Of a stretch of DNA of 64,000 nt, positions 10,690 through 25,789 are shown piece after piece. The DNA lies in contig BCIN01000006.1 in NCBI GenBank assembly GCA_039545335.1, positions 558,001 through 622,000 on the forward strand, in the 5' to 3' direction. The stretch comes from Kondoa subrosea. Taxonomy: Eukaryota. The translations under genes were made by a program, and so were the position numbers. The notes under the pieces are model-generated. The model was given only the letters and a program-made list of their open reading frames with translations. It did no database searches and was not told the DNA's origin. Each line of letters opens with the position of its first letter. The first letter of the stretch is position 1.

Positions 10690-10780
10690 AGCTTGCGTGA
10701 GTTCCAAAGTCAAGGAGAGAGAGAAGGGGAGAAACATCGGGATTGCATTTATTGTTTTGTAAGTTTTATCATTCGCATGA

Positions 10781-10798
10781 CTCTCTCTCTCTCTCTCT
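10781..10798. repeat. (CT)9 microsatellite in the divergent promoter region
   Basis: ctctctctctctctctct read directly from the sequence. Confidence 0.9.
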
Positions 10799-10977
10799 TT
10801 CCCCATCTCCGAACTCCTTATCTCAACCCGCCAAAGACTCAACATAGTACCTTGAGGCGACTTGATATACCTGATCTTATCAGAATAACACGAACAGACA
10901 GCGAAACCAGCCATTGTTATCGTGACAACTCACGCTCTTATCTCCCCTTTTCCCCCTTTCTCTAATCAACAGCAAGC

Positions 10978-14923: not shown

Positions 14924-16262
14924 TTCTGCAATAAGAGAGTAAAGTCTTGGTTTGAGAGAAGCTTGAGAATGCTGGGAAAATCGAAAACGAAATCTGCCTT
15001 TCGCGTAATGACCGCATTGTTTGTTCAAGTAAGAAAGTCTCCGATGTGGGCTCTCTGCCAGCAGCGGCAGGAGTTTGGAGTATACGGGAGCATGTAGTGA
15101 TAGTAGTAGGCCGTCGTCACAAGCTCGGTAGTGTCGGAGGTCACCATAGAACACTTTGCGGTGTATTTGTTTGTACAAAATCATTATCGCTTGCTAGCTT
15201 GACGTGATATACATGGTATGCTGCGACAGCATGTCGTAGATTGGTTCTGTATCAGAAAGTCAGAATGCCGTCGAATAAGCAGGCCAACGGATCAGAGCGG
15301 TGAATGCGACGCATCCCTCTCCCACAAGGGAAGAAGAGGGCAACAGAGCACCGTAACATAGGCTGACAGTGATAGTCTACGGAGAAGAGAGAGAAAGAAG
15401 TCAGGGAGGACCAACGAGGTGACCGCAGAGGTACCAGCAACTAGAAGCTGACCATGACGCCATCAAGCATAACGAAGAATTGATCTACCTCGTGAAAGTA
15501 CATTCGCCAGCCTCTGCAATAGTACGCACAGCACTCCAGACGAAAAGGCAAAGGATCTACAGCAGAACTACGCAATGATATTTTCTGAAATAGCGCGATC
15601 ATCCCTTGAGCAGATACTATGGACGAACTGGAATGCGGATATTGCGGATTGCAGTGCAAGTAGCAATAAGCTCGTCAAGAGAGTATGTGAAAGCAACTGC
15701 ATTGGACAGAACATTGGCAAGGCAAATTCGACTGGAGTTCTGGCACTACGGCAACGAGCGGAAAACAGTAAGACAGTGCATGGGCCGAGTGTTTGTGTGT
15801 CAGTCAACCTCCATCAAGTGCATAATCTGACAAATTGGCTCGAATATCGTTGCTATAAGTCAAAGTTCTGTGCTGCTTCATTTTATGGTCGAGCTCCTTG
15901 GATCTGTCTTCTGCTGTGCTTCTACAATGCGCTGAACGGATGTTGCTCTTCGTGTGCAGAATTTGTGCTAAGGACTCAAGGCAAGATCTTCGCAGCAAGA
16001 GTTTTATTCGATAGTCGCTTGAATGTTCTTTCCCTTGTCTGCACTACTTCTCTGCCGCTTGGTGCACTGCAATTACTGCAGCGCTTTATCAATCTTCGCA
16101 CATGGCCACGACCTTCAGTGTCCTTTAGCACAGCTCGCAACCCTACCTGTTATGCATCGCTTTTCTTCGCCTTATAGTCACTGGTGATGGATAGTGTACC
16201 TGCTCGGGTTACACTGGCTATATAAAAGCGTGCCGCTTCTATTTGACAACGAACGAAGCAAG

Positions 16263-17242
16263 ATGTGCGCCTGCTTAGACATTCAAAACGCACTCGACCT
16301 CTCTAAAGAAGTTCTAGCTCTGAAAGCCTACGATCCTACTCCAAAGGTCAATGACATCTTCTCTCGCCTGGTCAAGCTCTGCCTCGACTGCCATGATCCT
16401 CACTTCGTCGAACGTGTTCAAGAGCATGATCCCAAATTCGATGTCAATGCATTAGTAGATTGCTGNTTGAAAGCTGAATCGTGCATGGAAAATCANTGGG
16501 CGAAGAAGATTGNAAGCGGTGAGGCGAAAGTGACGGATTTTTGGTATCACCAGAATTATGGTTCGTTGACCTTTCCCTTCATAGTAATACATCGTAATTT
16601 CCCAACCAAAGTCGACATTACTGAATACGAAACTCAAGCATTAAAGTCATGCGGATTCGATTTCAAAGACAGACAAGATCATCATGTCGTGTTGATCGGA
16701 TCTGGTCCTCTTCCCTTGACGGCTTTCTTGCTCGCTCAAGCTTTCCCAAACGTCCAAGTGACTCTGATCGATCGCGATGCTGAGGCTCATAGTATGGCAG
16801 AGGCATGGATGAAGAAAGTGAATGCGGAAACGGCTTCGAGACTGCATTTCGTGTGCAAGGATTTCTTTGGTTGCTCTGCAGAGATGTTCAAGGCATTTGA
16901 TGTGGTTTACGTTGCTGTCAGTGCACTCTTTTCCTCAGACTGAAAAAGGTCAACTGATTCATTCCGTTTCAGGCCAGCATTGGAAGCGATCAAGACCGAC
17001 ATGGAGGTATTGCCGCTCATTTAGCAACACTCTTGCGACCTAGTGCTTGGTTGGCAGTCCGCACAGCTGAGAACGCTTGCCGCTTACTATACCACTCTTT
17101 CCCTTTGGCTCAACTCCAGAAAGCTGGTTTCCAAAACGCAACTACCTTTCCACCTCCAGCTAGTATTGTCAACAACGTGCATATCGCTCAGCAAAGGACT
17201 AAGGAATGCGATTGCGGAAATCATGGGCATAGACAAGCATAA
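16263..17242 (+). CDS. NAS: Nicotianamine synthase (NAS family SAM-dependent aminocarboxypropyl transferase), copy 1
   Basis: PTPKVNDIFSRLVKLC, AESCME..WA, FWYHQNY, IGSGPLPLT, IDRD, FDVVYVAA, VRTAENACRLLY. Introns at 16561-16611 and 16917-16972. Confidence 0.88.
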
Positions 17243-17444
17243 GGGATTGTTTCTTTGCATGCCATGTGTGATAAAGCAGCGTTTTGGATATATGCAATGC
17301 ACAAGCAGCTTAACGATGTAATCCCAATTCATATTTAAGCCTCGCAACGGATTCGGCTCAAAGGAGAGAAATCCGCGATTTTTAAGAAAATGGGCAGCCG
17401 GCAAAAAAAGAGGGTCTGGTCCTTGGAGAGACCTGAATCCTAGA

Positions 17445-17584
17445 AGCCTGACGTGGGGGTCGAACCCACAGCCTTTCGATTGGACTGGTTTTAAGAGTCG
17501 AATGCTCTACCGATTCTGTTGAGGATACGATTTAGAATGTGCTGCTTTGGTTGAATGAAAGGAAAACTTACGAGCTAGCCGGGC
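17445..17584 (-). tRNA. tRNA-Lys(CUU) with D-arm GT-AG intron (17516-17571) and anticodon-loop intron; copy 1
   Basis: Exact reverse complement of 22474-22613. Confidence 0.85.
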
Positions 17585-18569
17585 TCTTAAGCGTTGATGT
17601 GCGGAGCCGGCTTTGACAATACAGAACTAATTGAACAAAATTTGTAAGACAAAAATCAAGAAAATCAATCGAAAACGCTCTTGAAAGGATTTCAAGCACG
17701 TATTGGAACCTCTAGATGGTAGGCAAAGTGTAGAGTTTGATCAGATCGGTTGGAATTCGAGAAAGGATTGACTCAGAAGCGACAAAAAAGGAGAGAGCAT
17801 GTTTTGCGATCGGTCTGATTGATCGGCAGATGAGGGAAGGACATGAAGGACATGAAGCGCGTTGGATTGTCAATCAGCGTGTGAGACTGGAAGACAGGTG
17901 GCCGGGTGATACTTATACTTGACAGAGAATGACCAGCGAGGGAGACAAAGAGCCAGAAGATGAATGATGACCATAAGACATGGTCAGGTGCTTTGATGGC
18001 TATTCAAGTTGGACTCCACTGCAGGCACTATGGTCGGGTGGACAGTCATGAAAGGGAAACAAGGGAAGAAGGCCTGTCTTGAGCGTGAAGTCAAGCAAAG
18101 CGGAAAGAGGCAAGACGGGGACTGGTATAGAGGTGAATATCCGCAGACTATTGTGGAATTCATCTTAAGCGGTTGCTCTCCTACAAACCGTCGTCGCGGA
18201 TCGAATCGATTGGAATAGTGAAACATCAATTCAGCCGATTCTGTGCCAGTCGTGCTCGAGGACACAGAGTCAAAGGATAGCTTGAACACATACGATGCGA
18301 GAAGTCTGCGTTGACAGTACACGGAAAGACAGGAACGAGGAAGAGAATGTCGCAGGCAGTACCAACACCGCAGGGAAGGACAGCAAAAGAGTTCGAAGCA
18401 ACATGATACAGGCATTTACATGAGCCTATTCTTTTTCCTCTTCTTTGGGCGGAGGTGGAGGTTCTCGCGTTTTCCAACCGAAGAGACTGAAAGCAGCGGT
18501 AAAGAAGGATGCAATCTGATCATCGATACCAATTAGGTCTACGAGCACAGCTCGATTGCAGACAACGTA

Positions 18570-21549: not shown

Positions 21550-22473
21550 CTCTACTCTTCAATTTGCAGGTAAGTCTCCTCTTCTTGTACAGGCCAAAAG
21601 TGGTGCAGCTGAAATTCCAGCTATAGTATTATGCCACAAACTATCTCTCTGCAACCCTAATAACACTATCAGGCCGACCGTTACGCGAGTTTTATCGGTC
21701 AATGCATCAGAATTGGTGGCAGTGTATTTTTGAGTCGCCTCTGGTGCTCATCTATAGCCGCCTCATATCTATCGATGTCCTGGTCATCTGTTTGACCTAC
21801 TTTTGATGCCTGTTGCGCGATGTGACGACGTACTTGAAAGCTATTTGCCGGAGCAAGACATGTTGAATCTTCTTGCCTTCGGTCTGTGTCGATCTGTGGC
21901 CCAACTCTCCATATCTGCATACTTTCTCGGCGCTCATACTACTGTCTTCCATCTGTACATGCACGAAACTGTTTCTCGGCCAAGACCTCGCGTGCTTCCC
22001 TTATTTGCCTTTTCATGACTGTCCACCCGACCATACTGCCTGCAGCGGAGTCCAATTTGAACTCTCAAACCACCTGATCAGGGCTCTTGATCCTTGACCT
22101 TCTGGCTCTTTGTCTCCCTCGCTGGTCATTCTCTGTCAAGTATAAGTATCACCCGGCCACCTGTCTTCCAGTCTCACACGCTGATTGACAATCCAACGCG
22201 CTTCATGTCCTTCATGTCCTTCCCTCATCTGCCGATCAATCAGACCGATCGCAAAACATGCTCTCTCCTTTTTTGTCGCTTCTGAGTCAATCCTTTCTCG
22301 AATTCCAACCGATCTGATCAAACTCTACACTTTGCCTACCATCTAGAGGTTCCAATACGTGCTTGAAATCCTTTCAAGAGCGTTTTCGATTGATTTTCTT
22401 GATTTTTGTCTTACAAATTTTGTTCAATTAGTTCTGTATTGTCAAAGCCGGCTCCGCACATCAACGCTTAAGA

Positions 22474-22613
22474 GCCCGGCTAGCTCGTAAGTTTTCCTTT
22501 CATTCAACCAAAGCAGCACATTCTAAATCGTATCCTCAACAGAATCGGTAGAGCATTCGACTCTTAAAACCAGTCCAATCGAAAGGCTGTGGGTTCGACC
22601 CCCACGTCAGGCT
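22474..22613 (+). tRNA. tRNA-Lys(CUU) with 56-nt GT-AG intron (22487-22542) and 11-nt anticodon-loop intron (22567-22577); copy 2
   Basis: Removing both introns gives GCCCGGC TA GCTC AATCGGTA GAGC A TTCGA CTCTTAA TCGAA AGGCT GTGGG TTCGACC CCCAC GTCAGGC T. D, anticodon and T stems pair perfectly; the acceptor stem has one C4-A69 mismatch. Confidence 0.85.
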
Positions 22614-22648
22614 TCTAGGATTCAGGTCTCTCCAAGGACCAGACCCTC

Positions 22649-22655
22649 TTTTTTT
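22649..22655 (+). terminator. Probable Pol III terminator (T7) for tRNA-Lys; mirror copy at 17403-17409 on the minus strand
   Basis: Run of seven T about 36 nt downstream of the discriminator base. Confidence 0.6.
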
Positions 22656-22815
22656 GCCGGCTGCCCATTTTCTTAAAAATCGCGGATTTCTCTCCTTTGA
22701 GCCGAATCCGTTGCGAGGCTTAAATATGAATTGGGATTACATCGTTAAGCTGCTTGTGCATTGCATATATCCAAAACGCTGCTTTATCACACATGGCATG
22801 CAAAGAAACAATCCC

Positions 22816-23795
22816 TTATGCTTGTCTATGCCCATGATTTCCGCAATCGCATTCCTTAGTCCTTTGCTGAGCGATATGCACGTTGTTGACAATACTAGCT
22901 GGAGGTGGAAAGGTAGTTGCGTTTTGGAAACCAGCTTTCTGGAGTTGAGCCAAAGGGAAAGAGTGGTATAGTAAGCGGCAAGCGTTCTCAGCTGTGCGGA
23001 CTGCCAACCAAGCACTAGGTCGCAAGAGTGTTGCTAAATGAGCGGCAATACCTCCATGTCGGTCTTGATCGCTTCCAATGCTGGCCTGAAACGGAATGAA
23101 TCAGTTGACCTTTTTCAGTCTGAGGAAAAGAGTGCACTGACAGCAACGTAAACCACATCAAATGCCTTGAACATCTCTGCAGAGCAACCAAAGAAATCCT
23201 TGCACACGAAATGCAGTCTCGAAGCCGTTTCCGCATTCACTTTCTTCATCCATGCCTCTGCCATACTATGAGCCTCAGCATCGCGATCGATCAGAGTCAC
23301 TTGGACGTTTGGGAAAGCTTGAGCGAGCAAGAAAGCCGTCAAGGGAAGAGGACCAGATCCGATCAACACGACATGATGATCTTGTCTGTCTTTGAAATCG
23401 AATCCGCATGACTTTAATGCTTGAGTTTCGTATTCAGTAATGTCGACTTTGGTTGGGAAATTACGATGTATTACTATGAAGGGAAAGGTCAACGAACCAT
23501 AATTCTGGTGATACCAAAAATCCGTCACTTTCGCCTCACCGCTTACAATCTTCTTCGCCCANTGATTTTCCATGCACGATTCAGCTTTCAAACAGCAATC
23601 TACTAATGCATTGACATCGAATTTGGGATCATGCTCTTGAACACGTTCGACGAAGTGAGGATCATGGCAGTCGAGGCAGAGCTTGACCAGGCGAGAGAAG
23701 ATGTCATTGACCTCTGGAGTAGGATCGTAGGCTTACAGAGCTAGAACTTCGTTGGAGAGGTCGAGCACGTTCTGAATGTTGAGACAGGCGTTCAT
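22816..23795 (-). pseudogene. NAS: Nicotianamine synthase copy 2 with premature stop at codon 21
   Basis: Reads MNACLNIQNVLDLSNEVLAL then TAA (23733-23735), where copy 1 has AAA (16323-16325). The downstream core matches copy 1. Confidence 0.7.
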
Positions 23796-25128
23796 CTTGA
23801 TTTCCTTCGATGGACAAGAGAAGTGGGTCTTTATAGCAGGTACACTAGCCATCACCATTGACTGTAAGGCGAAGAAAAGCGATGCATAATAGTTATCATA
23901 GAGGTTGTAGAATCGAGCTGTGCAAGATAACGAGGAAGAAGCAGGGTCGTACTTTGGTATTTGGAGTGGAACTTGAGACTGATGCAACCGAAACGCGAAC
24001 TTATATGTGACAGAAGCAAGGTGTTGACAGTAACTGGCGTTATGTTTGGCTTTGGTACAACAAGATTCGAAGCGAGCAACGCCATATCGATTGGCTAGAT
24101 GTGTCCACCACAATGATGACCATCTATTGTATGCAAGCGCGGCAGTATCGCAGTGCTGATATGATACAGCAATGTCTTTGCCTTGAGATAGCTATACTTG
24201 CGTCCGGTAATGAAAAAGGCTGGGTTGATTTGGGGAGATGACAGAGTACTCAAGTACAACTTAACGACATAGGCCAGGTGAAAAGCGAGATGTTTTAACC
24301 ACTTGATGATCAAATTGCTGTCATGCAAAATTCGATTTTCGTGTAGGCTACACTATAAGATGCCGGCAAGCATGGTCCAGAAGCATAAGTAGGATCATTG
24401 AGCTGCTACACAGGCAGCTATAGAGCGCTTCGAAAAGAGGAAGAATTCGAAGGCTCCTTCCAACATTCGTTTCGCTTTCGACACGACCATTCTCGCTCCA
24501 ATATCTGAGTGAAACGCAGGATATACCAGTCTATGATATCACGAGCTATATATCCTCCAAATTCGAACAGAGTCGCTGTGCAAGATCAATAGATTTCCTG
24601 CTTATTCGGAGCTTCGACCGCCGCCTACGTCTTGAAGTACTGTAGCTTATACGGCGAACTTGCTCAGAAATCTCTTCTTGTCACTCGCTAAGGCTGCTGG
24701 ATTTCTTTCCCTCATTCTCGATGGCAGAGCTTGTAACATGCACTATGACTGCTCTTTTTCTTTCTTCTATGTGTCTGGCTTTAGGCGCCTTTCATCTAAC
24801 TGACTGCTAATCGGCGAACGAAGTTGAATTGCGCTCGAAGACTCAGTTCAACTCGAATCCATAATTTCCAGACACTTGTCAATTGGTGAACAAGATTTCG
24901 TATTGCTTCGCGACCAGCTACAACGTATGCCTTCGGTACTACAGTAGCTCCCTGCTCGCCGATCCCCGTGCCCTGTTGATGCTCCCTTTTCGGTTCATGT
25001 CATCAATCCTGTCTTCGGCTTGGGCAATCGCTTGTGCGCCTGAAAGCTCTTTTGCCCTACAGGACAACGGGTTGAGGGTTATAGATTACAAAAGATAACT
25101 GTCTTCCAACAAACTTTCATTTCAATTT

Positions 25129-25228
25129 GGGGATGTAACTCAGTTGGTAGAGTGCCTGCTTAGCACGCCCTTCGTATTCGAAGCACACTGCATGCATGAA
25201 GTCTACGTTTCGAATACGGTTAGTTCTA
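25129..25228 (+). pseudogene. Degenerate intron-containing tRNA-Ala(AGC)
   Basis: GGGGATGTAACTCAGTTGGTAGAGTGCCTGCTTAGCA [~27-nt intron] TGCATGAAGTCTACGTTTCGAATACGGTTAGTTCTA. The D arm is intact, but the anticodon, T and acceptor stems carry mismatches. Confidence 0.7.
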
Positions 25229-25789
25229 CGGTCCTATCAAGCTACAACACCTTCTTACCTTCAATTACCAGTACTTCTCCATTTGAAACCATCTTTTTTT
25301 GCCTTCTGGACCTTTTTTTGCTGGCCGCCCTTCCCTCTTGCTGTCCTGCCTCACCGAGTTGCGAGAAGTCAGACGTCGGAATAGAGGAGAAACAGTCAAA
25401 CACAAATCTTTTCACAATGTTCTCTGTCATTTTTGGCCATCCCAACCATAGCCTACGAACCAGCATCATCCAATACACCTGTCCACCAATTTTCAGCCTT
25501 ATCGCATCACTGGATCTCTTGCAGATCACATTCATGCACTTTATGCCGAAAATGTATAGATTACGTAATCATAGAATGAAATGAAGATCTCTTCGTATCC
25601 GTCGCGCGTCTTAACAGCACAGAGGTCTGCTCCTGCATACACTAGTACCCTCACTTATGCTGCAACACAACCGCTCGGCACGACATTTCGGCAACCCCTC
25701 ATCTGCTCAAGTCAAAAAACGCATGCCTATTCTTTCAGCCTATAAACCTTGCTTCGCAACGAGCATGATACCATAAAGCATTCGCGATT

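Follow-up and report, generated by a model that had tools for sequence, protein, structure and literature searches.

Can a nuclear transfer RNA (tRNA) gene be split by an intron of the messenger RNA (mRNA) type? The question is raised by a tRNA-Lys(CUU) gene at 22474–22613 (+) of a 64-kb stretch of Kondoa subrosea contig BCIN01000006.1 (the window, to which all coordinates refer). A first-pass annotation, made from the letters alone, had read this gene as carrying a spliceosomal-type intron in the D arm plus a normal tRNA intron; the sequence and coordinates that it gave, including a 56-nucleotide (nt) insert at 22487–22542, are as described there. From the analysis reported here we consider it likely that this is a working nuclear tRNA-Lys(CUU) gene, present in two identical copies, which is split between tRNA nt 13 and 14 by a U2-type GT–AG spliceosomal intron and belongs to a wider, undescribed set of such genes.

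The gene is formed by three exons. Exon 1 (22474–22486, +) is only 13 nt long and supplies tRNA nt 1–13, that is, the 5′ acceptor strand, nt 8–9 and the 5′ D-stem strand. The 56-nt insert (22487–22542, tRNA position 13/14) runs GTAAGT...TCTAAA...CAACAG, with GTAAGT as donor, CAG as acceptor and a branch-like TCTAAA 17 nt from its 3′ end. Exon 2 (22543–22566, nt 14–37) includes the anticodon CTT and is separated from exon 3 (22578–22613, nt 38–73, with an intact B-box-like GGTTCGACCCC) by an 11-nt canonical tRNA intron at position 37/38 (22567–22577), as delimited by ARAGORN. A T7 run, a candidate RNA polymerase III (Pol III) terminator, follows at 22649–22655, 35 nt past the tRNA 3′ end. The mirror copy that had been noted at 17445–17584 (−), here copy A, is 100% identical to this copy B over 140 nt, with the same parts in reverse: exon 1 at 17572–17584, the GT–AG insert at 17516–17571 (100% identity over its 56 nt), exon 2 at 17492–17515, the 11-nt canonical intron at 17481–17491, exon 3 at 17445–17480 and a T7 run, again a candidate Pol III terminator, at 17403–17409. 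At 80% likeness, one contig from each of two DNA runs of one sample, perhaps the very sample from which this DNA comes, spans 22350–22750 in one piece, with neither joints nor further pieces; this is not independent evidence and does not bear on other copies of the gene.

Standard searches pass over the gene, as had been predicted for tRNA finders: ARAGORN, in default or intron mode, calls no tRNA in the uncut window, and at gathering score Rfam matches zero families across the whole 64 kb. Exact deletion of 22487–22542 changes this. ARAGORN then calls a 73-nt tRNA-Lys(ctt) with a standard cloverleaf and an 11-nt intron at 37/38, in keeping with the standard D loop and the 37/38 intron that the first-pass annotation had described. 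The restored tRNA keeps 20 of 21 stem pairs, and the universally conserved positions that were checked by eye are all intact. The insert boundaries are unambiguous, since exon 1 ends in C and the insert in G, which leaves no room for a shift; the chance of finding GTAAGT and YAG at ends fixed in this manner is therefore about 1 in 130,000.

The insert resembles the mRNA introns around it. The window is intron-rich, with about 46% G+C, and three introns of a cysteinyl-tRNA synthetase gene, read by hand, are ~50–55 nt long, begin with GTNNGY, contain a CTRAY-like branch site and end in YAG. A heuristic that joins open reading frames (ORFs), and that itself required GTNNGY, a YTRAY motif and YAG, returned 47 intron candidates, grouped into 34 clusters; 25 are unambiguous and of the mRNA type (median 55 nt, range 44–114). 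At 56 nt the Lys insert is therefore of typical intron length for this genome, which bears out the earlier remark on its size. Its GTAAGT start fits the U2-type 5′ splice site, GTRNGY in this genome, and its branch site, YAG end and length are likewise of U2 type.

The first-pass annotation had proposed to look for the same intron in related species. We scanned metagenome contigs with a pattern of two D-arm halves 36–66 nt apart, with AG required before the second half and the insert start left free as a built-in control; a YAG end is thus informative for the window gene only. Loci were examined with 300-nt flanks. The scan gave 86 matches in 85 loci; GT opens 15 of these inserts, where ~5 would be expected (binomial p 3e-4). 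Deletion of the insert restores an ARAGORN tRNA at 7 of the 15 GT inserts (L016, L035, L051, L057, L076, L078 and L082) and at none of the 71 others (Fisher p 1e-6). Four more GT loci fit on inspection: L004, L024, L068 (cut by the contig end) and L085 (where a second insert must be removed). The remaining four (L062, L063, L069 and L075) are not tRNA-like. The L004 insert is the same as that of L016 and the L024 insert the same as that of L078; with duplicates collapsed, nine distinct genes besides that of the window carry a GT...branch...YAG insert at 13/14, namely eight tRNA-Lys(CUU) and one tRNA-Thr(AGU) (L078). L076 is counted as Lys(CUU) despite its ARAGORN label of Phe, its mature sequence being identical to that of the L016 group. 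Prokaryote genomes (596 Gb) searched with the same pattern yielded 50 matches, none of which starts with GT and none of which restores a tRNA. Those of the computational tests proposed beforehand that were run all came out in favour of the two-intron reading.

Taken with the window gene, the nine provide ten D-loop inserts, 47–57 nt long, that begin with GTAAGT, GTAAGA, GTAAGC, GTATGA, GTGAGT or GTAATT. All ten, and a further insert in the T loop of L085, have CTAAC, CTAAT or CTAAA 11–17 nt before the YAG end; the motif stands 11–13 nt before the end in the nine relatives and the L085 T-loop insert, against 17 nt in the window. The 3′ end is CAG in the window Lys insert and CAG or TAG in its relatives. 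Beyond these splice signals the sequence of the D-loop inserts is not conserved: among L016, L035, L082, L051 and L076 the insert interiors show 46–75% likeness in a global comparison that gives ~60% for unrelated inserts, and their last 20 nt are 70–95% alike.

Two of the relatives extend the pattern. In L078:294–420 (+), the tRNA-Thr(AGU) gene, a 50-nt GTGAGT...ACTAAC...CAG insert occupies 13/14, without a canonical intron, and a T5 run lies 6 nt downstream. L085:301–675 (+), which is Lys(CUU)-like, has three interruptions: a 57-nt GT–AG D-loop insert, an 11-nt canonical intron and a 62-nt T-loop insert that runs GTACGT...GCTAAT...ACAG and begins with a B-box-like copy. Within the L085 D-loop insert, the D-arm (A-box) region of the same gene is repeated almost exactly (p < 0.001). 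These internal copies may point to an origin of the introns by internal duplication, or to promoter elements kept within introns as in fission-yeast U6. A substitute A box inside the introns was also considered as a general idea and rejected, similarity to the D arm being significant in L085 alone (window p 0.16, the other eight p 0.18–1.0).

The exons behave differently from the inserts. L016, L035, L082, L051 and L076 have identical 73-nt mature sequences, and their D-loop inserts and 16–25-nt canonical introns have diverged. Seven stem pairs are variable among the four distinct Lys(CUU) mature sequences (4:69, 5:68, 7:66, 28:42, 29:41, 31:39 and 50:64), and nearly every change is compensated, the exceptions being C–A at 4:69 in the window gene and T–T at 29:41 in L085. 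The anticodon and T stems of the window gene pair perfectly, with compensatory changes relative to L057, its nearest relative, from which pairs 28:42, 29:41 and 50:64 differ on both sides. Beyond these mismatches, the loss of pairing and the neutral exon divergence that mark a tRNA pseudogene are not seen. By comparison of these sequences, the exons are under purifying selection and behave as those of working tRNA genes do.

Flanking sequence is conserved in part of this group as well. L016, L035, L082 and L076 have in common, in the ~25 nt before the tRNA, a 5′ leader hairpin that includes the first two tRNA bases, with two compensatory pair changes in L076, and a ~70-nt 3′ trailer with a T-arm-like hairpin and a T5 run at its end; upstream conservation in the L016 group covers ~25–45 nt before the tRNA. 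The conserved leader and trailer may serve the processing or the stability of the short exon 1. In the window, at 22441–22481 (+) and its mirror, leader sequence ~20–28 nt upstream pairs with tRNA nt 1–8 of exon 1 in the minimum-energy fold, a pairing that has no covariation and may be due to chance.

A second interrupted locus lies nearby in the window. At permissive settings Rfam reports a single tRNA match, below threshold, at 25129–25228 (23 bits, E 2.6), which, read by hand, is a tRNA-Ala(AGC) gene at 25129–25281 (+), a third interrupted tRNA gene that the first-pass annotation had overlooked. Exon 1 (25129–25165, nt 1–37) is followed by a 27-nt canonical intron at 37/38 (25166–25192), exon 2 (25193–25218, nt 38–63) by a 53-nt GT–AG insert at 63/64, in the 3′ strand of the T stem (25219–25271; GTTAGT...TCTTAC, 15 nt before the end, ...CAG), and exon 3 (25272–25281, nt 64–73) by a T7 run 12 nt past the 3′ end (25294–25300). 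With both segments deleted, ARAGORN in default mode calls a 73-nt tRNA-Ala(agc); with the GT–AG insert alone deleted it makes no call. The gene has the G3–U70 pair, and the boundary of its insert is ambiguous by 1 nt. Its GT–AG insert shows no relation to that of the Lys gene (p 0.78). A scan of both strands of the window for D-arm-like sequence revealed no other tRNA-like gene; all three tRNA genes of the window are therefore interrupted, and they amount to two independent loci. In other eukaryotes the 13/14 position appears, from the metagenome contigs, to be used by both tRNA-Lys(CUU) and tRNA-Thr(AGU), and 63/64 (Ala) and the T loop (L085) would be further positions.

Each Lys copy sits in one arm of an inverted repeat (left arm 16256–17968 with copy A, right arm 22090–23802 with copy B), whose 1713-nt arms are 99% identical and flank a 4.1-kb unique segment. 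Besides the tRNA-Lys gene, each arm includes a partial nicotianamine-synthase-like (PF03059) gene, which has a 56-nt intron of its own. The best named matches of the cysteinyl-tRNA synthetase fragment are all basidiomycetes, from several subphyla, at 50–54% identity, and another window ORF matches nothing at more than 67%; ESM Atlas, applied to the synthetase fragment, pointed to Ascomycota and was given less weight than the named basidiomycete matches. By these proteins the source is a fungus closest to Basidiomycota, and the collections searched contain no near relative of it. A GA/CT-rich hairpin at 10698–10813 gave sub-threshold matches to plant and insect microRNA families (19–25 bits against gathering scores of 53–95), most likely low-complexity noise. 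Two other identities for the Lys insert were tried and rejected. A mobile intron-like element or transposon finds no match in the data: the 64-kb window holds no further copy of the insert beyond the two in the repeat arms, neither a terminal inverted repeat nor a target duplication was seen by eye, and the Lys and Ala inserts are not related to each other. For a group I or group II self-splicing intron, Rfam gave no match over the insert, either at gathering score or at E up to 5. At 56 nt the insert is in any case far too short for an intron of either group.

One objection is that neither window copy still works: a spliceosomal intron, or something resembling one, would have entered a Lys(CUU) gene and killed it, and intact genes elsewhere would supply the tRNA. 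Several observations weigh against our interpretation of the gene as a working one, and most of them would suit its death. There is one acceptor-stem mismatch, C4 opposite A69, where the relatives have C–G, G–C or T–A. The branch-like TCTAAA departs from CTRAY at one position (L057 also uses ACTAAA). The longest T run in the insert is T4 and could weaken Pol III read-through, although fungal Pol III reads through T4. The insert splits the A box with no evident substitute (insert against own D arm, p 0.16). The Ala gene nearby has two stem mismatches and T53–A61 instead of G53–C61; it may be decaying and is a weaker case than Lys. The two Lys copies are a recent duplication within the inverted repeat and therefore count as one observation. 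The metagenome scan fixed both the insert position and the D-arm sequence, such that the shared position is by design and the scan is silent on how frequent other positions are, and the recurrent loci are known from metagenome contigs only, without taxonomic placement. The accessible text of a 2014 review of tRNA introns adds that a eukaryotic tRNA gene with an insertion in its D or T arm is as a rule regarded as a pseudogene, nucleomorph and red-alga cases excepted (PMC4090602). Set against this are the nine other distinct genes that keep the architecture with intact cloverleaves, their exons covarying or identical while their introns diverge; three of them, L016, L035 and L082, are on contigs with one sample prefix and each has an interrupted copy, so at least three coexist. 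The window gene itself retains its conserved positions, its candidate T7 terminator and perfect anticodon and T stems, the last through compensatory change. On this balance the death of the window copies seems unlikely, and the same arrangement in unrelated environmental DNA probably marks a real, overlooked kind of tRNA gene.

Granted a living gene, there are other ways in which the insert might leave the RNA. It could be a non-canonical tRNA intron cut by the tRNA splicing endonuclease, with GT and AG ends that are incidental; non-canonical D-arm introns do exist in Guillardia nucleomorph and Cyanidioschyzon tRNA genes, according to the part of PMC4090602 available to us. Such introns are framed by a bulge–helix–bulge (two 3-nt bulges, in which the splice sites lie, with a 4-bp helix between), the finding that the first-pass annotation had named as fatal to its own proposal. 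The motif is not present at the junctions of the window Lys insert, where no central helix exceeds 2 of 4 pairs, whereas shuffled versions of this insert typically form 3 (328 of 500 trials). The L078, L085 and Ala inserts likewise stop at 2 of 4. The L016 group does attain 4 of 4, through a TAGC/GCTA palindrome at the 3′ end of the intron but without a flanking intron helix, and shuffling alone produces 4 of 4 in 33 of 500 trials. The 56-nt insert lies at 13/14 and not at the canonical 37/38, which the separate 11-nt intron occupies. Nor does the endonuclease predict the conserved GTRNGN start, the CTAAY motif at a fixed 11–17 nt, the YAG end or the failure of all 71 non-GT inserts to restore a tRNA. 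With the motif missing from the window insert, and with the GT start, the branch motif and its spacing unexplained by an endonuclease model, we provisionally assign the insert to the spliceosome, and regard cleavage by the endonuclease as very improbable. A different arrangement would keep the spliceosomal intron but place the tRNA within an RNA polymerase II (Pol II) transcript, spliced co-transcriptionally, from which RNase P and RNase Z then excise the tRNA. Spliceosomal introns normally belong to Pol II transcripts (PMC12530127, in the text accessible), a split A box should weaken TFIIIC binding, and the conserved upstream segment and trailer of the L016 group would be at home in such a transcript. 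Yet a T5–T7 run lies 6–73 nt past the 3′ end in all nine genes with enough downstream sequence, the B-box-like sequence of the window gene is intact, and upstream similarity between the window copies extends for only 384 nt, past which the neighbouring genes differ. T runs inside the inserts are never longer than T4, which is not informative for Pol III because the mRNA-type introns of the window also lack T5 (0 of 25; T4 in 7 of 25). A spliced Pol III transcript has precedent in the fission-yeast U6 gene, as cited in PMC5855946. A Pol II origin is accordingly unlikely in our estimation; the T runs after the genes and the intact B-box-like sequence favour Pol III, as in fission-yeast U6, and suggest that the gene may be transcribed by it.

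On the interpretation that we prefer, a Pol III-transcribed gene with a spliceosomal intron, the precursor could mature as follows. RNA polymerase III would read the whole unit to the T7 run, and the spliceosome would excise the 56-nt intron as a lariat, with GTAAGT as donor, TCTAAA as branch site and CAG as acceptor. Until this had happened, neither the D arm nor the cloverleaf could form. RNase P and RNase Z would then trim the ends, and the tRNA splicing endonuclease and ligase would take out the 37/38 intron, an established pathway that is assumed here. The spliceosomal step is inferred from sequence and conservation, and the order of processing is likewise an inference.

A broader proposition is that spliceosomal introns are regular in the Pol III-transcribed tRNA genes of this fungus and its uncultured relatives, at several positions (13/14, the T loop and 63/64) and in several isoacceptors (Lys-CUU, Thr-AGU and Ala-AGC); we hold the chances of this to be about even. 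Some isoacceptors may exist only in interrupted form, in which case tRNA supply would depend on the spliceosome and current tRNA finders would under-count these tRNA sets. Genome annotations made with standard tools would silently miss such genes. Textbooks and, in the portions accessible, recent reviews treat spliceosomal and tRNA introns as separate systems on separate transcripts (PMC12530127, PMC10275265). If our reading of the gene is right, the ways of interrupting a tRNA gene would number four, and U6 would be joined by another, independent instance of what is probably a Pol III transcript being processed by the spliceosome; two splicing machineries would work on one small RNA, and a split A box would be tolerable.

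mRNA-type introns in small structural RNA genes are already a known kind; what would be new here is the tRNA host. The U6 small nuclear RNA (snRNA) genes of fission yeast and of certain yeasts among the basidiomycetes contain such introns (Tani and Ohshima 1989, 1991, cited in the accessible text of PMC5855946), as the first-pass annotation had stated, and by the title of Frendewey et al. 1990 in the reference list of that review the Schizosaccharomyces U6 intron holds a B-box match. The same source cites spliceosomal introns in U1, U2 and U5 of Rhodotorula hasegawae and in ascomycete ribosomal DNA (rDNA) (Takahashi 1993, 1996; Bhattacharya 2000), and its available text lists no tRNA case. In the accessible text of the 2014 tRNA-intron review the word stem 'spliceosom' is absent (PMC4090602). 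By the passages at hand, tRNAscan-SE 2.0 models non-canonical introns for Archaea only (PMC8450103), a 2023 review sets tRNA splicing against the spliceosome (PMC10275265), and a 2025 paper sees no relation between the three intron types and assigns the spliceosomal ones to Pol II transcripts (PMC12530127). The first-pass annotation knew of no such case for tRNA; we likewise found no tRNA gene described as having a spliceosomal intron in the searchable full-text literature, which leaves most subscription journals outside it and is not proof of novelty.

The nearest parallel is U6. In both, a GT–AG intron lies in a highly conserved part of a short non-coding RNA whose gene has Pol III promoter and terminator features, and the B-box match of the Schizosaccharomyces intron recalls the L085 inserts with their copies of the A-box and B-box regions. 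The host differs, being a tRNA and not a component of the spliceosome. Since a tRNA is not at the catalytic centre of the spliceosome, the explanation from proximity offered for U6, reverse splicing into an RNA at that centre, does not obviously apply and fails to explain intron gain here. The Lys transcript would also differ from U6 in having an endonuclease-type intron, with two unrelated splicing systems on one RNA, and in its split A box. The snRNA genes of R. hasegawae and the ascomycete rDNA provide further mRNA-type introns in fungal structural RNA genes, and the window synthetase is nearest to basidiomycetes; the former are Pol II genes and the latter Pol I, however, and neither is a tRNA. 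Bulge–helix–bulge introns of Archaea, Cyanidioschyzon merolae and nucleomorphs likewise lie outside 37/38, including in the D arm, may be several per gene and are missed by finders (PMC4090602, PMC8450103, in the parts accessible). They are recognized by structure and cut by the endonuclease, are 3–24 nt long in the nucleomorph and lack GT, branch and AG signals alike, whereas the window inserts have spliceosomal ones. Canonical 37/38 introns occur in these same genes (11 nt in Lys, 27 nt in Ala), and it is from these that the 56-nt and 53-nt inserts at 13/14 and 63/64 stand apart, being longer and bearing a splice-site consensus.

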